A model generated the notes under the pieces. The model was not told the origin of the DNA. It worked only from the letters and a program-made list of their open reading frames with translations, and searched no databases. Both the position numbers and the translations under genes were made by a program. From a virus (Duplodnaviria; Caudoviricetes), in the IMG/VR virus record IMGVR_UViG_3300023171_000016, positions 1-53,970 of that record: a stretch of 53,970 nucleotides of DNA; one strand, given 5' to 3'. This document shows, one piece after another, positions 4,262 through 42,171 of this stretch (positions are counted from its first letter, which is position 1; each line of letters starts with the position of its first letter).

Positions 4262-4747
4262 ATGAATAACGAATTGAGAATGGCGGCGTTTGGGGCGTAC
4301 CCGAATGCAACCGCAATAGGACAGGATGAGCGTAACCCGCATTTCCCTGCCGATACAGGCAAGATAGTAGAGCTGGCAGCCTACAAAGCCACTATAGACA
4401 ACAATGGCGAATACTACGAGTTTATACCGGATGAGGTGAAGCTCCTACTTACGCCTTTGTCCCGCATAACGGATGAGCATGCGATTGAGGTGGCGAAGCT
4501 GGCGGATATATCGGAGGCAGAAAGAAAATATCGGCATGGCTGGAACGATTACGATAATTACGAAAGGATAGGCAAGGAAATCGCACAAGACCTGATTGAA
4601 GATTATGGCGACCCTTGCAAGGTAGGCGCAAAAAATGCTGTCGCAATTGTCGACTACCTACGCTCCAAAAGTTACCTGCTCCCATTTCGAGGCGTAGACC
4701 TCATAGCGGCTGGTATAGCTGTTGAAAAGGGGGTGGGTGATGAGTGA
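4262..4747 (+). CDS. hypothetical protein, YopX-like
   Basis: KLLLTPLSRIT...DYLRSK..LPF pattern. Confidence 0.6.
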   Translation: MNNELRMAAFGAYPNATAIGQDERNPHFPADTGKIVELAAYKATIDNNGEYYEFIPDEVKLLLTPLSRITDEHAIEVAKLADISEAERKYRHGWNDYDNYERIGKEIAQDLIEDYGDPCKVGAKNAVAIVDYLRSKSYLLPFRGVDLIAAGIAVEKGVGDE

Positions 4748-5036
4748 GCAACTACTTTCCGCAGCCGAGGTCTACGCAGACTACAGCGTTTTTGACCTTA
4801 ACGGACACCTGTTTTCTAACAACAATGACGAGGCGGCTAATGCTATTAAATGCAGCACAGAATCATTCACCGCTGGCGCACAGTGGGCTGACCCGATAGG
4901 GTTTGCGGAATGGCTACTTACGCCTGATTGCAGGGCATACAGGGAGCTTGGGACATTCAATTGGACCATGGTTGACACCGGGGAAAATGTATCGACACAA
5001 CAACTATTCACAATCTTCAAAAAACAGCAGCAATGA
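4740..5036 (+). CDS. hypothetical protein
   Basis: FTAGAQWA motif, typical of phage early proteins. Confidence 0.65.
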   Translation: MSEQLLSAAEVYADYSVFDLNGHLFSNNNDEAANAIKCSTESFTAGAQWADPIGFAEWLLTPDCRAYRELGTFNWTMVDTGENVSTQQLFTIFKKQQQ

Positions 5037-8534: not shown

Positions 8535-9041
8535 TTACCCTATAAACCCCACTAATTTCGGGTCGTCTAACCTTCGTGTACGTCTGCATACCATGCCGCC
8601 GGTACGGCTCCCGTTCGCATCGGTATTGCCTTCTATTGTCACCATTACGCCACCATCTACAGATACTACTATGCCGGTATGGCCTAATCCTTTGCCATAA
8701 TCCATAATGAATATGTAGCCCGGTAAAATAGTGGCGTTTTTAGGCTTACGCATGTGTTGTGGAGCATTACGCCATCCGTTCAATACGCCGCCTGTTTTGT
8801 GCAAAGGATTGGCTACATGGAGGATTTCGGCAGCTTCATTGAAGCATCGGTAAACAAAGGCCATACACCAAGCATTATTTTTGCCAAGTCCCACCGTTTT
8901 CAGGCATGCTTCGACAAACGGCCCGGCATTGCTACCCGCTGGAATTTCCTTTTTGCCGATGTATGTTGTAGCTATCTGTAGTGCCGTTTCTGCCAGCGAT
9001 AACGGCAGGGTTACGGATTGATTTTGTGTTTCTGTGTTCAT
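8535..9041 (-). CDS. CHAP-domain endolysin
   Basis: AWCMAFV...GHTGIV...TIEGNT catalytic Cys/His motifs. Confidence 0.85.
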   Translation of the reverse strand: MNTETQNQSVTLPLSLAETALQIATTYIGKKEIPAGSNAGPFVEACLKTVGLGKNNAWCMAFVYRCFNEAAEILHVANPLHKTGGVLNGWRNAPQHMRKPKNATILPGYIFIMDYGKGLGHTGIVVSVDGGVMVTIEGNTDANGSRTGGMVCRRTRRLDDPKLVGFIG

Positions 9042-9118
9042 GGTGTATATTTGTGGCTACTTTCCGTGTTCTTATTACCTACACCCCGTAATCCCCATAC
9101 TTGCGGGGTGTATTATTT
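9023..9118 (+). ncRNA. Putative antisense small RNA with its own promoter and terminator hairpin
   Basis: TTTG-N19-TATATTTG (9023-9053); 12-bp hairpin 9080-9112 followed by a T-rich tail; no ORF. Confidence 0.5.
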
Positions 9119-9242
9119 AATATAATATCCACGCAAAAGTTGTACATAATTTTAGGGCAAAAGTTGTAGATTAAATCAGGCGGGATTTCTACCCGCAGCC
9201 CCGTCTTTGCCGGACGGTATATTTAGCTTTTCTACGACTGAT

Positions 9243-10355: not shown

Positions 10356-11183
10356 CTACGGTAGTAAGTTAAGGCATTCGGCGTAGTGGTTGGCGGTTTC
10401 TACTGCTTGATTGCGCTCTGTTGCAAAGTGGTTGTGTGCTGATTTTACCAGTTCGGCGAGTGTAAATGCCCGCTCTGTATTGGTAAGGTCTGCGAGAATG
10501 TTTTCTATTCGGTGAATAGGCTTTTTCTCTTGCTCCGAAAGCAGCATGTCCAACACATGTGCATCATATTCGTTGCGCTCCGCTTTCGCCTTCAATTCCA
10601 CAATTTCGGCGGTAAGTTCATTTATCTGTTCTGCTGCGGTGGTCAGCGTACGTTTGTTAAATGCAACCTCTTTTTGTAGTTCTGTATTGATAGTACACCA
10701 CCCGTTAATCCCTTTTTTCAATTCTGCATTATCCGCACTTAGTTCTGCAATCGTTTCATCTTTACCTGAATCCTGTGCATGTAGTTGTTCGATGTACGTG
10801 CGCCTGTCTGCAAGCGTAGCCGTAAGCCCGTCTATTTCTGCTTTCAGGTCTGCGCGGCTGCCTATCGCTTCGTCAAGCTGGCAGTTGAGGGAATTGATAG
10901 CAGAGTTACATTTTTCAATGTGTACACTAAGCCCTTCAATAGTTTTGTCCTTTTCCCTTACTGCTGCGTGTAGCGGAGCAACATCGGCACGTAGTTTATC
11001 TCGCTCATTGAACAACCCTTTCATAATATTTTCCGCTTCGTCTACTTGATTTCCGAGGGAGGAAATGGTTATTTTGTTCGATTCAAGTTTCGCCGCCTGC
11101 TTGTTGCTCTGTGCCAACTGTGCTTTAACCAGCCCTTCCAACTCCTTTACCCTCGATAATAACTGTGCATTTGTCTGTTTCAT
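10356..11183 (-). CDS. long coiled-coil protein, independent unit
   Basis: Heptad-rich sequence; TACCTTTA 11209-11216; terminator at about 10304-10329. Confidence 0.8.
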   Translation of the reverse strand: MKQTNAQLLSRVKELEGLVKAQLAQSNKQAAKLESNKITISSLGNQVDEAENIMKGLFNERDKLRADVAPLHAAVREKDKTIEGLSVHIEKCNSAINSLNCQLDEAIGSRADLKAEIDGLTATLADRRTYIEQLHAQDSGKDETIAELSADNAELKKGINGWCTINTELQKEVAFNKRTLTTAAEQINELTAEIVELKAKAERNEYDAHVLDMLLSEQEKKPIHRIENILADLTNTERAFTLAELVKSAHNHFATERNQAVETANHYAECLNLLP

Positions 11184-11247
11184 TTTGTGAATGTTTTTTT
11201 GTGAGGGGTAAAGGTAATAAAAAAGGCCCACAGTTGTGAGCCTTAGT

Positions 11248-11289
11248 ACTGCCTCGCTGATAACTTTGCGAGAAAACAGCGGGAGTTAG
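11248..11289. repeat. 42-bp 3'-UTR element, copy 2
   Basis: Matches 9768-9809. Confidence 0.9.
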
Positions 11290-11558
11290 TCGGTAGATAC
11301 CGTACAATATTGGAATACCAGACTATTTGCAGCATGGTTAAACTCCATGTTGTTCAGGCCGCTATTCGTTAACTCATTGAATATCCTGTTAGGAACCACC
11401 GTAGCCAACGCATGCATAAACATGGTGAATTTCTGGTCATCGTTTAGGTCTTCCTGTGGTATGTGAAAGTCATTGTCTTCTTCAAACACCTGTGCAATTG
11501 CTCCGTACAGCTTAACTGCGTACTGAAAAATTTGGTCTTGCTTCTCTTGATGTGTCAT
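11286..11558 (-). CDS. hypothetical protein (MTHQEKQDQ...), independent unit
   Basis: TACCTTTA 11598-11605; terminator at about 11219-11243. Confidence 0.75.
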   Translation of the reverse strand: MTHQEKQDQIFQYAVKLYGAIAQVFEEDNDFHIPQEDLNDDQKFTMFMHALATVVPNRIFNELTNSGLNNMEFNHAANSLVFQYCTVSTD

Positions 11559-11639
11559 TTTTTTTCGCAAAGTTTATCCGGCAACATTACCGGACGGTAA
11601 AGGTAATAAACTTTCCGCAATTTCCGGTTAGTTGGTGTA

Positions 11640-11778
11640 AAATGAGTAACGCCGCATCGGAGCGGCGTTAGACTTTCATTGAATCGTTTTTTGCTCCTGC
11701 GCCGACAACACGATATTGCTTAGGCTTGGGGACTCGAACCCCGCTGCACCGATAACCTACTTACTTTCGGTTTGAGGC
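11640..11778 (-). ncRNA. Putative small RNA containing a tRNA T-arm-like hairpin
   Basis: Promoter TACCTTTG 11781-11788; GGGG-TTCGAGT-CCCC at 11728-11742; terminal 9-bp hairpin 11647-11670. Confidence 0.5.
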
Positions 11779-11855
11779 TACAAAGGTAGTAACGTTTTTG
11801 ACACTACCAAACATTTCTGCATAATTTACTTTCAGGGGTGGCGGTGGGTTGCTTT

Positions 11856-11966
11856 AAACAAAAAAGGGCATAACGAATCGTTACCCCCTTTCAAATCCAC
11901 CATGTTATGCTGACCGGGCGGATACTCTAAACCAAAACATCGAAGTAGATGCAATAGCGTAGTGCG
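11856..11966 (-). ncRNA. Putative small RNA / mini-ORF unit
   Basis: Promoter TATATTTG 11970-11977; terminator hairpin plus U-tract at about 11856-11891. Confidence 0.45.
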
Positions 11967-11988
11967 CCACAAATATACAACTTTCCAT

Positions 11989-12018
11989 AAACAAAACACC
12001 CGCCACGTGGACGGGTGT
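11989..12018 (-). terminator. Intrinsic terminator of the tRNA operon
   Basis: ACACCCG...CGGGTGT followed by TTTGTTT right after tRNA-Tyr. Confidence 0.75.
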
Positions 12019-12022
12019 AAAG

Positions 12023-12106
12023 TCGAAGTAGAGGGATTCGAACCCCCGAAGCCATAAGGCGGCTGATTTACAGTCCACCCGTTTTATCCATCTTACCTAT
12101 ACTCCG
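12023..12106 (-). tRNA. tRNA-Tyr(GTA), long variable arm, atypical C1-G72 pair
   Basis: Acceptor CGGAGTA/TACTTCG-A, loop CTGTAAA, T arm GGGGG-TTCGAAT-CCCTC; weak D and anticodon stems. Confidence 0.8.
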
Positions 12107-12112
12107 ATTTTG

Positions 12113-12185
12113 TGGGAACGGTTGGGGTCGAACCAACATCTAAGGTTTTTCAGACCTTCGCTAAGACCGCATCAGCTACGCTCCC
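12113..12185 (-). tRNA. tRNA-Phe(GAA)
   Basis: GGGAGCG/CGTTCCC-A; AAGGT-CTGAAAA-ACCTT; GTTGG-TTCGACC-CCAAC. Confidence 0.93.
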
Positions 12186-12191
12186 ATAATG

Positions 12192-12262
12192 TACCCCCAC
12201 ATGGAATTGAACCATGATCATCCGGTTAAAAGCCGGTAGCTCTGCCGTTGAGCTATAAGGGT
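12192..12262 (-). tRNA. tRNA-Lys(TTT)
   Basis: ACCCTTA/TGGGGGT-A; GCTC/GAGC D stem; CCGG-CTTTTAA-CCGG; CATGG-TTCAATT-CCATG. Confidence 0.92.
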
Positions 12263-12268
12263 ATTTTG

Positions 12269-12341
12269 CACGCACCCAGAGAATCGAACTCTGCCAAATG
12301 GTTTTGGAGACCTTTTCGCCATCCTTGGGACATTGGCACGT
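12269..12341 (-). tRNA. tRNA-Trp(CCA)
   Basis: ACGTGCC/GGTGCGT-G; GGT-CTCCAAA-ACC; CAGAG-TTCGATT-CTCTG. Confidence 0.88.
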
Positions 12342-12343
12342 AT

Positions 12344-12380
12344 AAAAACAAAAATCCCGCTTAGTTTTCACCAAGCGGGA
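12344..12380 (-). terminator. Intrinsic terminator (attenuator 3:4 stem) immediately upstream of the tRNA operon
   Basis: TCCCGCTTGGT-GAAA-ACTAAGCGGGA followed by TTTTTGTTTTT. Confidence 0.85.
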
Positions 12381-12403
12381 CACTATTATGTTTAACAAAA
12401 TAG

Positions 12404-12463
12404 CTATCGCTTGGTAACGTTTCCGTACCAATAACTAAAGCTAAAATGTTTCGTTGTATTCAT
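12404..12463 (-). CDS. Putative attenuator leader peptide MNTTKHFSFSYWYGNVTKR
   Basis: ATG 4 nt after the -7 element; 7 of 19 codons are Lys/Phe/Tyr/Trp; overlaps alternative hairpins. Confidence 0.75.
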   Translation of the reverse strand: MNTTKHFSFSYWYGNVTKR

Positions 12464-12467
12464 GCCA

Positions 12468-12498
12468 CAAATGTACTACTATTTTTCAATTCACCAAA
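12468..12498 (-). promoter_or_regulatory. Promoter of the tRNA operon
   Basis: TTTG(12495-12498)-N19-TACATTTG(12468-12475). Confidence 0.8.
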
Positions 12499-12744
12499 TT
12501 ATATCCCAATATCCTCCATTCCCGTATCAGTCAGCCCGAAAAACTTTATAGTGTAGTGCATTAGCGTGGTGCCTATAGTCATGCCTGTTACTATCTGATA
12601 TTTCAGGTGTTCCGGTATGCCGGGCAGCATGGTTAGCACGATAGCAATTGCGCCGTTAATGAATGAGAAAATGCGAAAGGCTAATTTCAGCCCTTTCGGC
12701 GTGGGGTTGTTCACCTGTGCAACTCCGAATTTAATGTCTGCCAT
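12499..12744 (-). CDS. small 2-TM membrane protein (holin-like)
   Basis: Two hydrophobic segments; PTPK motif before the first TM. Confidence 0.6.
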   Translation of the reverse strand: MADIKFGVAQVNNPTPKGLKLAFRIFSFINGAIAIVLTMLPGIPEHLKYQIVTGMTIGTTLMHYTIKFFGLTDTGMEDIGI

Positions 12745-12747
12745 ATT

Positions 12748-13089
12748 TTACGGTTTATCCTTAATTTCTAATCTTGTTACTTTCGCCAGTACGCCCCGCC
12801 AGTCTATCAGCTTTAGGAATATCATTATGTCGCGGCTTGCAAGGGTAGCGACCGGCACGCAATATGCGCCAGCCTCAGGTGCATGTGCAAGGAACCACTT
12901 ACTTGTAATGAAACCTACGAAAATACCCATAAAGCTGGTGCCGAGAATATACAATCGGGTTATGCGCTTCTTATTGATTATATCCAGCCCAAAAGTACCT
13001 ACAAGCCCTATAAGGACGTAGGCAAACCATGCTCCGTACTTCGTTAGCACGTCTAAAGTTTCTTGGTAGAGTGTTTGTCTGTTTGACAT
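12748..13089 (-). CDS. putative holin
   Basis: 2-3 TM segments and a basic C-terminus; start moved to MSNRQ. Confidence 0.6.
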   Translation of the reverse strand: MSNRQTLYQETLDVLTKYGAWFAYVLIGLVGTFGLDIINKKRITRLYILGTSFMGIFVGFITSKWFLAHAPEAGAYCVPVATLASRDIMIFLKLIDWRGVLAKVTRLEIKDKP

Positions 13090-13406
13090 AATCTGTAAAT
13101 GAGCCATGCGGTAGCCGATGCTGCAAAAATTATTTCTATTCCGTCGATTTGGGCCGCTTGCCCCCTCACTTCGTCTATCCAGTTATTTACAGCCAAAACG
13201 CCGCAATACTCTAACCAAACCTTTTCCCGTGTCGTGCATTTGTACAGCTTACAGGCTATAGCCATGCACACGAATGAGAACGCCTGCCATGTGCAGAATG
13301 ATTGACTTAGTGCCGCCGCTGTTTTGGCTGGCAGCCCCTCACTATGAATAAGCCACCGTGGCAGCGTATTCGTTAGTATGGCAATTATGGTAAATACTAT
13401 GCTCAT
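13053..13406 (-). CDS. membrane protein
   Basis: Several hydrophobic segments. Confidence 0.6.
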   Translation of the reverse strand: MSIVFTIIAILTNTLPRWLIHSEGLPAKTAAALSQSFCTWQAFSFVCMAIACKLYKCTTREKVWLEYCGVLAVNNWIDEVRGQAAQIDGIEIIFAASATAWLIYRLCQTDKHSTKKL

Positions 13407-13693
13407 TTGCGAATTACTGGTGGTCTGCCGCCTACGAACTCTACCGCTACGCTGGTGTATGGGTTATTGCCGCCGGAATCTGTGAAGTTGATTGAGGCAT
13501 TGGCACCTACGTCAGCATAACCGCACAGCACATTTGCGCCGTTCCTGTCTTTTTCTATCCACATGCTGCCTATGTAGTTGGCAACCGTACCTGTTACCGA
13601 TGTTGGCACCTGTGGTACATTATCAATGCCTGTTATTAGGTCGCTGCCTATGTTGTCTACGTGGTAGCATACTTTATTGTCTGTACAACACAT
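13403..13693 (-). CDS. hypothetical protein
   Basis: 96-aa ORF, coupled to the next gene. Confidence 0.6.
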   Translation of the reverse strand: MCCTDNKVCYHVDNIGSDLITGIDNVPQVPTSVTGTVANYIGSMWIEKDRNGANVLCGYADVGANASINFTDSGGNNPYTSVAVEFVGGRPPVIRK

Positions 13694-13719
13694 TTTTATA
13701 TTGGTTTAAAAGTTACAAA

Positions 13720-14322
13720 TTACCTACGCACTATCAGCACGTCAACCGTTGCCCCGCTTACCGGCGTAGTCGCTATAGACAAGGCCAAAGTAAGCACAGA
13801 TACGCGCTGATATACAAGTACTGAAAATGCTGTAGTTGAAATAGAAATTACCCTACATTGATACTGATCTGTACCGCCTATAATATTGGCTTGTATCGAA
13901 GGTGTTGCGGCATATGCCACAGGGAATGTAATGTTGAATAAACCCGCGCCGTTAGTAGTTCCGGTATATGATGTATCTCGGCGGGTAGATGTTGCCGGTA
14001 TGCTGATAACGCCGGTTGCTGCATTGTAAGCCGGTGTTGCGTTGGTGGTGACTACTGATAGTGCGGCGCGTGCAGCAGAAGACATTGCCGCCCTAAGTGC
14101 AGCCGCTGTATCTCTGTCCCTACGGTCTATGTACTTCTTTGCGCACTCGCTTGCCCACGGCGAATGTGTGCTAACGTCAATAACACCCATAGTGTCCTGA
14201 CAAAGCCCTGACATATACACACCATTTGCAAACATTATCACAGGCGTAACAGTTACACCGGTTTGCCCCGCTGCTACTGACAGGGAGCGGGCAAGTAGGA
14301 GGAAAATTAGTAGGTTTTTCAT
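13720..14322 (-). CDS. signal-peptide protein with a fibre-tip/lectin-like C-terminus
   Basis: MKNLLIFLLL...AAG/Q; ITFPVAYAATPSIQA pattern. Confidence 0.7.
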   Translation of the reverse strand: MKNLLIFLLLARSLSVAAGQTGVTVTPVIMFANGVYMSGLCQDTMGVIDVSTHSPWASECAKKYIDRRDRDTAAALRAAMSSAARAALSVVTTNATPAYNAATGVISIPATSTRRDTSYTGTTNGAGLFNITFPVAYAATPSIQANIIGGTDQYQCRVISISTTAFSVLVYQRVSVLTLALSIATTPVSGATVDVLIVRR

Positions 14323-22564: not shown

Positions 22565-22801
22565 GTTGTCAGTAATTTAAGAGGTTAATAAAAGATTGAT
22601 ATTAACCTCTTGCTGTTAGGCTCGGTTCAGCCTGCAACGCGTTACGGATAGGTGCGTGAAACCTGCAATGGTTTTAGGAGTGACCATGAACACGGTGTAA
22701 AAGTATGTAAGCGTTTTGATATAGCAAAATAAAAATAAAAAAACCCACACATTGCTGTGTGGGCCTGTCGTGGTTCACTGGTTATGGCACAGCGGCCCAC
22801 A

Positions 22802-23662
22802 CTACGCTGGAATGCCTAAATACTCCATAAGGTTGCTCTCTGCCTGCTGGTTTGGCGACATCATGTTACCATCAGCCCCTTTAACAAAGTGGTCTTTCGG
22901 CTTTGCTATTGCCTCCGCCGGATTTACGGCCCTGTTGTCTTCGTTCCACTGCATCCGGTCTACGTGGTATTGTTTCTGTATGTCGGCAAGTTTAACCTGC
23001 TGCGAACGGGCATCATTCAGCGCGAGGTTATTCGGGTTGTTTTTTTCGTACAACACTATATCCTTACCGTCCTCTGTCAGCTTCACAGTAAAGTTGCCGT
23101 GCAAATACTGCTCAAAATCTGATTGCAGTATATCTTTTTTCGCCTTCGGGTCAATCCCCTTAGCATTCGCGTACAACTGTCCCAGCACATTTTTAATGCC
23201 GAAAGAAGCTATTTTCTGCTGAAACTCTTGTTCTTTAGCAGTTAGCGTACCCTTTACTGCTTCCAGTTCCTTGGCATGGTTAGACATTACCTCTTGTAGC
23301 TGCTGTGCTGCCGTGTCCTTGTCCGTTCCGAGGCTCTTGGCGTAATGCTGAACGGCCAAACGTGTGGCTTCTTTACCGTCCTTGCCTTCTATTTCTGCTG
23401 CGGGTATGCCGGTAAGCTCTATGAGCGTTTTTTTATGTGCGGCGGTTATCTTTCCGGACACTTTACCGTTAATTTCGCCTTCCAGTACGCCCCTTAGTTT
23501 CTGCTCTATTATCGGGCTACGGTTCGCATCAACAAGGCTCAATATTTCATCCTCATTGTATGCCGTTTCTGCATTATCGTCCGCAACAAGGTCTACGTCC
23601 TCCCCTGTTAACTTGCTGTACGCTTGCTGTAATTGTTTTGCTGTTAATTTGCGCTGTGCCAT
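22802..23662 (-). CDS. putative capsid scaffolding protein
   Basis: Charged helical 286-aa protein between portal and capsid. Confidence 0.65.
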   Translation of the reverse strand: MAQRKLTAKQLQQAYSKLTGEDVDLVADDNAETAYNEDEILSLVDANRSPIIEQKLRGVLEGEINGKVSGKITAAHKKTLIELTGIPAAEIEGKDGKEATRLAVQHYAKSLGTDKDTAAQQLQEVMSNHAKELEAVKGTLTAKEQEFQQKIASFGIKNVLGQLYANAKGIDPKAKKDILQSDFEQYLHGNFTVKLTEDGKDIVLYEKNNPNNLALNDARSQQVKLADIQKQYHVDRMQWNEDNRAVNPAEAIAKPKDHFVKGADGNMMSPNQQAESNLMEYLGIPA

Positions 23663-39933: not shown

Positions 39934-40328
39934 TCACGTAGCGCGGGGTCTGCCTTTGCCATATCCAGCTTCTTACGGGTATATGCTTCATGCACTTCAT
40001 CAGGGTTTTCGCCCTCTATGAATACGCCTATGGCAGCCATACGCAAAATGCACTGTTCATCTAAGGTGTTGTTGATCCGATATTGCAGGTTATGAGCAAT
40101 AGCCGACATGTCGCTTATGAACGTAGTTATAGGCACCTGCTTATTTACGCGGTCTAAAATTTCCTTTACAAAGGATTGCAGCACTTCCGGCGACACGCCG
40201 CAACGGCTGAATGTGTCTTGTGCTTGCATCGCCAGTTCGCGGGACTTGTGGTATTGCGTATCTTCTGCCGGTGCATAAAAACCGGGATATACCTCACGAT
40301 AAAGTGGGTTGTTTTTGTACTGTGCCAT
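39804..40328 (-). CDS. putative tail assembly chaperone (G)
   Basis: 174 aa with GAT TTT TTT TTG (DFFL) slippery site near the C-terminus. Confidence 0.65.
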   Translation of the reverse strand: MAQYKNNPLYREVYPGFYAPAEDTQYHKSRELAMQAQDTFSRCGVSPEVLQSFVKEILDRVNKQVPITTFISDMSAIAHNLQYRINNTLDEQCILRMAAIGVFIEGENPDEVHEAYTRKKLDMAKADPALRDFFLIQGVALTPDYATICRGLQVREYLTSREEAINMLMLPKTP

Positions 40329-41679: not shown

Positions 41680-42171
41680 TTACCCTATTTTTATTTCTTG
41701 GTCGCCTATTTTGAAAACTTGGTCGGTAGTGACATTGGCGTTAATTTCCTTCTTATCGGTGAACATGGCTACATGCTTACCCATCAGCTCTAACGCCCTG
41801 TTTGCTCCATTGCTGTCAAATTCCCACACCCCCTGACCTTCTTCATCGGTCTTTTGCTCCATGCATTTATCAATCGGATTGAACACCATTACAGGTGTAG
41901 CCTGCATGCACCTATCTGCTACCTCTTTTAATTTTTCAACGACGAAAGTTGCATCTACCAAAGTATTTGCACTTCTTTCTTTCATTTTTTGTTGTATATA
42001 CGCGCGAATATCAACATGCTTCAACAAACGTTGACCCTGAGAGTATGCAGTATCTTTGCTGTAACCGGCCCTTTGTGCTGCCTGTGTTGCATTAAGGTCT
42101 ATTAGATATTCCTCGCAGAAAGTCTTCTGTTTTTCATTAAGGTTTGCTATATCTATCAGTTCTTCTGCCAT
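41680..42171 (-). CDS. terS: terminase small subunit
   Basis: LNEKQKTFCEEYLIDLNATQAAQRAGYS...ALELMGKH. Confidence 0.93.
   Translation of the reverse strand: MAEELIDIANLNEKQKTFCEEYLIDLNATQAAQRAGYSKDTAYSQGQRLLKHVDIRAYIQQKMKERSANTLVDATFVVEKLKEVADRCMQATPVMVFNPIDKCMEQKTDEEGQGVWEFDSNGANRALELMGKHVAMFTDKKEINANVTTDQVFKIGDQEIKIG

Follow-up and report, generated by a model that had tools for sequence, protein, structure and literature searches.

The 53,970-bp window analysed here, IMG/VR record IMGVR_UViG_3300023171_000016, is the complete record of a soil phage and is present in leaf-litter metagenome runs. On its minus strand, a promoter of the Bacteroidota sigma-A type is followed by a 19-codon open reading frame (ORF), an intrinsic terminator and four tRNA genes, all of which are found where a first-pass annotation of the sequence had placed them. 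That annotation had read the ensemble as a leader-peptide attenuator with codons that correspond to the tRNAs it controls. We consider it probable, on the strength of the sequence features described below, that the unit acts as a ribosome-mediated (leader-peptide) transcription attenuator and would sense shortage of the operon's own tRNAs. Its parts, in the direction of transcription, are as follows.

12495..12498, minus strand: TTTG, the -33 element of the Bacteroidota sigma-A type promoter (pattern TTTG-N19-TAnnTTTG)
12468..12475, minus strand: -7 box TACATTTG, with a 4-nt spacer to the ATG, the A of which is the predicted +1
12404..12463, minus strand: leader ORF MNTTKHFSFSYWYGNVTKR, leaderless, 19 codons, coordinates including the stop TAG (ATG at 12463, TAG ending at 12404)
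12425..12445, minus strand: regulatory codon run F7-S-F-S-Y-W-Y13, from ribosome-footprint simulation
12401..12443, minus strand: hairpin 1:2, serving as anti-antiterminator or pause hairpin, with the inner stem TTGGTACG/CGT(T)ACCAA, -13.5 kcal/mol in its extended form
12408..12417, minus strand: region 2, the antiterminator strand TTACCAAGCG, within codons 16-19 and reaching to 1 nt from the stop codon
12382..12404, minus strand: inner hairpin inside the antiterminator helix, which reuses AGCTA of hairpin 1:2
12343..12381, minus strand: intrinsic terminator, 12-bp stem (12381-12354), GAAA loop and TTTTTGTTTTT tract, -19.9 kcal/mol
12268..12341, minus strand: tRNA-Trp(cca), non-canonical, called by ARAGORN, below the Rfam tRNA threshold
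12191..12262, minus strand: tRNA-Lys(ttt), called by ARAGORN, Rfam 61.9 bits against a threshold of 29
12112..12185, minus strand: tRNA-Phe(gaa), called by ARAGORN, Rfam 60.1 bits against a threshold of 29
12022..12106, minus strand: tRNA-Tyr(gta), called by ARAGORN, Rfam 33.8 bits against a threshold of 29
11988..12018, minus strand: terminator closing the tRNA operon, 9-bp stem followed by TTTGTTTAT

The whole promoter, TTTG-N19-TACATTTG, spans 12498-12468, and the full motif has 8 matches in the window against 1.94 expected, at least 8 being reached in 0 of 100 shuffles. The sigma-A box TAnnTTTG of Flavobacterium is reported to lie at -12 to -5 (PMC9723704). This position sets the A of the leader's ATG at +1, so that the leader mRNA would be leaderless. 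According to the same source, 5.5% of Flavobacterium mRNAs are leaderless, and leader-peptide attenuation has been proposed there, with clues reported. The box-N4/5-ATG geometry also opens the TerS gene of the window (ATG 42171; Pfam Terminase_2, 1.4e-31) and a 174-aa gene (ATG 40328), and leaderless expression therefore appears to be a habit of the phage. This promoter geometry makes translation of the 19-codon ORF plausible. Four genes on the minus strand, at 42171, 40328, 32296 and 15023, begin 4-5 nt past a TAnnTTTG box, which suggests that leaderless mRNAs may be widespread in this phage. The promoters of the 40328 gene and of the tRNA leader also have in common a block of ~21 nt, ATTGAAAAA(T)AGTAGTACATTTG.

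The leader offers mutually exclusive pairings, which, like the parts themselves, are visible in the sequence. The claimed 1:2 hairpin is recovered on folding, at -13.5 kcal/mol when extended, and it is the first to form along the co-transcriptional path. For the 2:3 antiterminator, the pairing stands but the claimed length of 8 bp does not: TTACCAAGCG pairs with CGCTTGGTGA (12377-12368) in a 10-bp helix, an inner hairpin is added, and the entire 2:3 structure reaches -20.8 kcal/mol. To follow the effect of translation, the transcript as it stands before synthesis of the terminator 3' arm was folded with a ribosome footprint set at each codon. With the ribosome at codons 2-13 the antiterminator forms, at codon 14 only 4 of its pairs are left, and from codon 15 to the stop it is abolished, so that the simulation allows the antiterminator up to codon 13 and blocks it from codon 15 on. 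The stalls that open hairpin 1:2 while leaving region 2 free are those at codons 7-13, FSFSYWY. The seven codons that had been counted for the four tRNAs are indeed present, but the Lys codons are poorly placed, and codons 7-13 form the effective window. Lys is the least convincing of the four specificities because K5 lies further upstream, ahead of the 1:2 hairpin core, and K18 falls within region 2.

We propose that host sigma-A RNA polymerase would initiate at the A of the ATG (12463) and that a 70S ribosome would read the leaderless 19-codon ORF behind the advancing polymerase. When decoding is fast, the ribosome would come to lie on codons 15-19 and the stop codon and would cover TTACCAAGCG. 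The 5' arm of the terminator would then find no partner upstream, the terminator would fold, and transcription would end 2 nt before tRNA-Trp. When cognate charged tRNAs are scarce, the ribosome would instead be held in F-S-F-S-Y-W-Y, hairpin 1:2 would be opened and TTACCAAGCG would be free to bind the terminator 5' arm, upon which the polymerase would read through and the tRNAs would be made. ORF translation, ribosome stalling and readthrough are the steps that we infer. Because the tRNA products would quicken decoding of the leader, the arrangement is expected to work as a negative feedback loop for tRNA supply. What is sensed is more likely to be tRNA availability than amino-acid supply, as extra tRNA would not be expected to relieve amino-acid starvation. 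Shortage of tRNA could arise from codon demand, from infection-time tRNA decay or from tRNA-cleaving defence systems.

The intrinsic terminator stops 2 nt short of tRNA-Trp, a space too small for a promoter. It is highly improbable, in our judgement, that the tRNAs have a weak promoter of their own overlapping the T tract of the terminator at GATTTTTG. This sequence (12355-12348) fits TAnnTTTG at 7 of 8 positions; its box is without the first T, however, there is no TTTG 17-21 nt upstream, a pattern search finds no full motif, and the start would fall ~2-4 nt ahead of the mature 5' end of the tRNA.

Several chance tests on the window bear on the proposed attenuator. Lys, Phe, Tyr or Trp account for 7 of the 18 non-start codons of the leader (binomial p 0.009 against the phage's own genes), and the codon-level enrichment under strict wobble has p 0.013. 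Among the small ORFs of 15-25 codons in the window, 2 of 224 (~0.9%) are equally rich. Of 2000 dinucleotide shuffles, 1.6% equal the complementarity of the leader to the terminator 5' arm. When a closed ORF, 7 or more cognate codons, this complementarity and an adjacent stop codon are required jointly, 2 of 20000 shuffles qualify.

The match of codons to tRNAs is supported by analogous units in the tRNA arrays of several other, unrelated phages. A first sample, drawn with no regard to leaders, was obtained by scanning IMG/VR with a 17-mer of the anticodon arm of the window's tRNA-Phe, which gave 20 loci, 8 of them with tRNAs, for which the full arrays were taken. A second sample was run afterwards with the window's tRNA-Lys arm as the query and the script unchanged. 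The script finds tRNAs that follow a gap of at least 45 nt and requires a hairpin and T-run abutting the tRNA; it then takes the longest ATG ORF of 8-45 codons that ends no more than 90 nt from the hairpin, and compares its peptide with the tRNAs that follow, until the next junction or a gap of more than 400 nt. The first sample held 171 tRNAs, 109 gaps and 9 terminator-to-tRNA junctions, 8 of which have a short ORF; 6 of these 8 match at p<0.05. The second held 146 tRNAs, 72 gaps and 4 junctions, which amount to 2 distinct units because the L110 and L113 leaders are identical, both with p<=0.05. The pooled set, from which the two L113 duplicates and an ORF-less junction were dropped, comprises 10 distinct junctions. 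The matching leaders are listed with the tRNAs that they precede (L numbers are locus labels).

Window: leader MNTTKHFSFSYWYGNVTKR, before Trp-Lys-Phe-Tyr; script match 7/18, p 0.022
L079: run LLLSYYSSLSLL, before Leu-Leu-Ser-Tyr; 13/24, p 1.4e-4
L079: run RHTWFTFTPQCIC, before Pro-Thr-Cys-Phe-Trp-Gln-His-Arg; 15/29, p 0.006, with every one of the 8 amino acids represented
L086: run FLYSYSWSLCFF, before Leu-Tyr-Phe-Cys; 9/27, p 0.048
L097: leader MTSLHKQNQSWFMTPLCGEYIRMCGGSM, before 12 tRNAs; 16/27, p 0.017, with each of the 10 assignable amino acids represented
L099: 27-codon short ORF, before Cys-Met; 4/26, p 0.016
L110/L113: leader MTGTKRVIWGVVREGWDD, before Trp-Met-Lys-Arg-Arg-Arg-Val-Ile; 9/17, p 0.026
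L110/L113: leader MKTVCLSSLSSYSSLLSGGGGS, before Leu-Cys-Leu-Leu; p 0.05

Leaders are thus enriched for the amino acids of the downstream tRNAs at 8 of the 10 distinct short-ORF junctions (pooled Fisher p 6.1e-8, and 2.8e-7 when the window is left out), and the codon-level Fisher test under strict wobble gives p 1.3e-6. When tRNA sets are reassigned among leaders, the observed match is reached in 0.08% of 20000 permutations and in none of 7483 derangements. Agreement of leader codons with cluster anticodons is therefore seen in other phages as well, and the core of the first-pass annotation, an attenuator with codons for the tRNAs under its control, gains support from these units. The peptide RHTWFTFTPQC, for instance, stands before tRNAs for Pro-Thr-Cys-Phe-Trp-Gln-His-Arg. 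The unit with MKTVCLSSLSSYSSLLSGGGGS continues beyond a 765-nt gap with Leu, Leu, four Ser isoacceptors and Tyr; once these post-gap tRNAs are counted, MKTVCLSSLSSYSSLLSGGGGS has 13 consecutive C/L/S/Y codons, with Ser codons of four kinds, an extension that was seen post hoc.

The pairing can be followed through the same set. At 6 of 10 junctions (window, L079-Lys, L079-Pro, L086, L099 and L110-Trp), the strongest duplex of leader and terminator 5' arm falls within the short ORF with p<=0.04. At L097 and L110-Leu the strongest duplex is also in the ORF yet is non-significant (p 0.12 and 0.13). Shuffles pair as well as the leaders of L079-Leu and L098-Leu do (p 0.65 and 0.89), and the L098-Leu duplex lies outside the ORF. 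L079-Pro and L086 have the TTTG / -7 box / N4 / ATG geometry of the window, whereas L097 and L099 have sigma-70-like or Shine-Dalgarno signals; since these signals differ in type, the leader design is not restricted to a single host phylum. The L079 and L110 leaders have no DNA-level match in GenBank phages. On the minus strand of L079, a 118-kb IMG/VR contig, the ORF MRSSAQWVLLL stands before tRNA-Lys(ttt) and is unmatched to Lys, Arg, Asn and Met; its nt 11-25 pair with the 5' arm of the terminator at -23.3 kcal/mol, and 0 of 500 shuffles are as good. This terminator may be translation-sensitive without being codon-specific.

A comparable unit is found in a cultured phage, Tenacibaculum phage Gundel_1 (MT732474.1, L114), in which an unannotated 411-nt gap (4524-4934) precedes a tRNA cluster. 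Within the gap, TATGTTTG-N4-ATG precedes and starts the ORF MKTKLYSYSCFSSWFKNRAG (leader at 4662-4724). Its antiterminator strand, GAGCAGGATA, overlaps the last codons and the stop codon, with a pairing energy of -13.8 kcal/mol that 0 of 1000 shuffles equal. Next come a terminator, a tRNA-like stretch with a 7-bp acceptor-like stem, and a non-canonical tRNA-Trp(cca) that ARAGORN calls at a relaxed threshold only. This tRNA-Trp is followed by Phe, Ser(tga), a tRNA of undetermined type and Ser(gct), and 7 of the 19 leader codons specify F, S or W (p 0.006). Alignment of this leader with that of the window is weak (z 2.5), and the pairing arms diverge in sequence while their complementarity is kept, which hints at distant homology of the two leaders. 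The window's codon run has the Ser codons AGC and AGT and no tRNA-Ser, and the similar Gundel_1 leader precedes tRNA-Ser(gct) and tRNA-Ser(tga); the window operon may have lost a tRNA-Ser.

A number of observations weigh against the proposed attenuator. At equilibrium the full-length leader adopts the terminator fold at every ribosome position, so the choice between terminator and antiterminator must be kinetic. In the classical trp leader, the full-length RNA likewise prefers the terminator. The truncated transcript without a ribosome favours 2:3 at equilibrium, which makes the default state of the switch uncertain. A stall at K18, inside the antiterminator strand, would favour termination, and two Ser codons of the regulatory run have no tRNA in the operon. 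The tRNA-Trp is atypical. The codon statistic of the window is modest (p 0.009-0.022, with a longest matched run of 3), and all chance tests on the window were post hoc. The arrays of the two samples were drawn with 17-mers of the window's own tRNAs, not from random phages, and within them there is no codon match at L079-Lys (1/10) and L098-Leu (1/10), 2 of the 10 short-ORF junctions, and no short ORF at the L098-Pro junction. Other arrays lack any such junction (L077, four stretches of G320, L106, L111 and L112). Covariation support for the leader helices is absent because no sequence homologue of the leader was found in the searches described below. Finally, 3 of 9 terminator-like sites in the window, the leader's and 2 others, have upstream complementarity at p<=0.005, and as 2 other sites show such pairing, the complementarity statistic is weak by itself.

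This last point would also fit an ordinary, somewhat leaky terminator, for example that of an upstream late operon ending at 12499, with constitutive readthrough into the tRNAs and with the ORF, its codons and the pairing as coincidence. The 81-aa gene (12744-12499) that precedes the leader is not separated from it by a terminator, and the single window statistics are each just ~0.01-0.02. We nevertheless regard such a terminator as an unlikely explanation: the joint null is reached by only 2 of 20000 shuffles, a full promoter stands in front with the ATG at +1, the architecture with matching codons recurs in other phages, and a terminator that combines a 12-bp GC-based stem and a U tract of 11 nt is not weak.

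The switch might also be real and yet be set by a factor acting in trans, either a phage or host antitermination protein or an uncharged tRNA as in a T-box, rather than by the ribosome. The alternative structures are about equally stable, and a shared regulator is suggested by the near-identity of the promoter cores of the leader and of the 174-aa gene at 40328. However, neither of the other two such promoters is followed by a terminator, and the codon match across phages points to decoding. Moreover, no T-box or other Rfam family reaches its threshold: a T-box has no match at E<=10 in 12300-12520 nor at E<=1 in 11000-13500, the trpB motif (RF04312) scores 26.5 against 59 bits and Trp_leader (RF00513) 16.9 against 41 bits, and the Rfam families, L10_leader included, are all far under threshold at the leader. 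We therefore consider control by a trans factor very unlikely. The weak trpB match is attributable to a shared hairpin/terminator architecture, as the right shoulder of the RF04312 hairpin is described as able to pair with the terminator that follows (PMC11109978). RF04312 is assigned in that source to Firmicutes and Fusobacteria and has no defined ORF there; the window leader, at 26.5 bits against a gathering threshold of 59, is not a member.

The stretch from promoter to terminator might, alternatively, be a gene of its own, encoding a ~120-nt small RNA or the 19-aa peptide, with the tRNAs riding on readthrough. The leader does fold well (z-score -4.96), it is followed by at least two further short units (11977-11855 and 11811-11647), with another on the plus strand (9023-9120), and attenuator RNAs and leader peptides of Sinorhizobium are reported to be able to act in trans (PMC6614838, PMC7298713). 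A gene of this kind would be compatible with attenuation and does not exclude it. What it leaves unexplained are the codon match to the downstream tRNAs, here and in other phages, and the place of the stop codon beside the antiterminator strand, and as the sole account of the unit it seems to us quite unlikely.

Homologues of the leader were sought at several levels. A blastn search of 11000-14000 against GenBank phages gave matches at the tRNA level only; neither the exact 27-mer of the terminator nor the back-translated leader peptide pattern had a match in IMG/VR; and when the leader with tRNA-Trp was compared by BLAST with 301 Chitinophagales genomes, the only matches were partial ones to tRNA-Trp and short ones due to chance. 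The 81-aa neighbour has no relative in IMG/VR and matches only itself in a collection of 5.8 billion proteins, and the 291-aa and 200-aa neighbours have no match among the 5 nearest relatives searched. Among sequencing runs, two of leaf-litter DNA contain the stretch and none of RNA was listed; wherever contigs of the two runs cover the leader and the tRNAs, they are identical to the window and so offer no usable natural variation.

Relatives of the phage as a whole are available. Portal homologues with 35-68% identity define a family of roughly 50-kb phages, from which 14 IMG/VR records and 20 prophage-like loci in assemblies of Chitinophagales and other Bacteroidota were gathered. All 34 related loci are without tRNAs for 10 kb around the portal gene, and the 14 whole IMG/VR relatives carry 0-2 tRNAs each, none with this cluster or leader type. 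In the relatives L027 and L028 the order is the usual one of terminator, promoter and tRNA, with the -7 box immediately before the tRNA; in the window this order is reversed and the promoter precedes the terminator. The prophage-like relatives located in Chitinophagales are in Flavipsychrobacter, Chitinophaga and Taibaiella, which is consistent with the Bacteroidota promoter type of the window. Under the best explanation, the host of the phage is a Chitinophagales-like member of the Bacteroidota.

Classical enterobacterial attenuators (trp, phe, his, thr, ilv, leu) consist of a short ORF with regulatory codons, a terminator and a ribosome-dependent antiterminator, and multivalent examples exist among them (thr, ilv). 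The window unit resembles them in its ORF with regulatory codons, in the terminator before the genes and in the mutually exclusive antiterminator. Whereas they regulate biosynthetic enzymes, the window unit would regulate tRNAs, so that the sensed molecules would be its own products. It also differs in that its ORF is leaderless, in that the antiterminator strand lies within the ORF beside the stop codon and in being phage-borne, and analogous phage units list up to 10 amino acids. The pheM leader of Escherichia coli pheST senses the supply of charged tRNA-Phe and controls phenylalanyl-tRNA synthetase. This leader is alike in that a leader peptide controls a component of the translation apparatus by charged tRNA supply, but it is chromosomal, concerns a single amino acid and has a synthetase as its target, whereas the window unit targets tRNA genes. 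T-box riboswitches are similar in sensing tRNA status and in choosing between terminator and antiterminator; unlike the window leader, they bind tRNA directly, do not need an ORF and mostly target synthetases.

Leaderless ORFs with a sensory role are also known. In mycobacteria, a ribosome stalled on a leaderless polycysteine short ORF is reported to open a structure that hides a ribosome-binding site (bioRxiv 10.1101/834739). As described there, these ORFs are alike in lying leaderless at the 5' end of an operon and in turning genes on through a stall at cognate codons, but the control is translational, whereas the window unit has an intrinsic terminator and targets tRNAs. A search of open-access papers and bioRxiv full text found no description of a leader-peptide attenuator before phage tRNA genes. 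The mechanism class is classical and leaderless sensory ORFs are known, while the use of such leaders, enumerating tRNAs, on phage tRNA sub-operons was found undescribed in that open-access search.

Phage tRNAs have long been discussed as constitutive helpers that compensate for codon usage, replace degraded host tRNAs or allow escape from anticodon nucleases. A leader that spells out the tRNAs behind it would imply that phages gauge codon-specific decoding speed and adjust tRNA output, and it would give a direct read-out of the tRNAs that become limiting during infection. It would also put a classical mechanism to new use, with the controlled products acting back on their own sensor. A further gain would be a simple sequence rule to assist in the annotation of gaps so far unexplained within phage tRNA arrays and in the prediction of transcription units. 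Gundel_1, cultured as a pair with Tenacibaculum sp. AHE14PA, offers a laboratory system.

A role in counter-defence had been suggested in the first-pass annotation, on the ground that tRNA-Lys is a target of PrrC and tRNA-Tyr of retron Ec78/PtuAB, and both targets are in print: PtuAB of retron-Eco7/Ec78 is reported to degrade tRNA-Tyr and PrrC to target tRNA-Lys, with phage tRNAs countering both (PMC11555353). In the cases described there, T5-like tRNA-Tyr against retron-Eco7 and phage tRNA-Lys against PrrC170, tRNAs of the same specificities as in the window replace destroyed host tRNAs; those phage tRNAs are expressed from a very strong constitutive promoter, whereas the window tRNAs appear to be conditional on ribosome stalling. 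A counter-defence purpose of the window unit is plausible. An anticodon nuclease or infection-induced decay would remove a tRNA, the ribosome would stall on that codon and the replacement tRNAs would be switched on. As many as 10 amino acids are listed by units elsewhere, which a general tRNA-supply sensor fits at least as well. It is possible, although we hold this only tentatively and think it rather doubtful, that phage tRNA arrays in several bacterial phyla are made up of sub-operons, each with a leader that lists the codons of its own tRNAs to the isoacceptor level, as per-tRNA depletion sensors serving inducible counter-defence. If tRNA-cleaving defences do trigger such sensors, phages would possess an inducible counter-defence with a direct reading of how the translation apparatus stands.

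Within the operon itself, Rfam bears out the assignments of tRNA-Lys, tRNA-Phe and tRNA-Tyr, while the fourth, tRNA-Trp, is called by ARAGORN but is non-canonical. Its T stem has only 4 bp and its D and anticodon stems contain mismatches; it misses the threshold of Rfam RF00005, and its best Rfam match is tRNA-Sec, at a sub-threshold 22.3 bits. No credible tRNA-like remnant was found in 11600-12030 by ARAGORN, at the relaxed threshold included.

Directly past the terminator of the tRNA operon, a -7 box TATATTTG lies at 11977-11970 (minus strand). The stretch 11855-11977 (minus strand) would yield a structured RNA of ~110 nt with 3 hairpins, one of them terminator-like (fold -36.9 kcal/mol, z -3.3), and has a short ORF, MFWFRVSARSA, with Phe-Trp-Phe codons and no tRNA downstream; it could be a small RNA or a relic second leader unit. 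At 11647-11811 (minus strand), a full promoter (11811-11781) is followed by ~130 nt with a tRNA T-arm-like GGGGTTCGAGTCCCC and by a terminator (11670-11647); ARAGORN calls no tRNA there even when relaxed, 5 Chitinophagales genomes have no match to it, and its fold is ordinary (z -0.95). At the terminator 22766-22741 (minus strand), an upstream complement TGTGGGCC lies at 22800-22793, directly past the stop codon of a 286-aa gene (duplex -20.7 kcal/mol, z -4.5), and this site (22741-22802) may be another translation-sensitive terminator or may be due to chance. On the plus strand, at 9023-9120, a full promoter (9023-9053) with the leader promoter's ending TTTGTGGC is followed by a hairpin ACACCCCG...CGGGGTGT. 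This unit, possibly a small RNA, is intergenic and lies upstream of the gene for a CHAP-domain endolysin (8535-9041, minus strand); transcription from it would head away from that gene.

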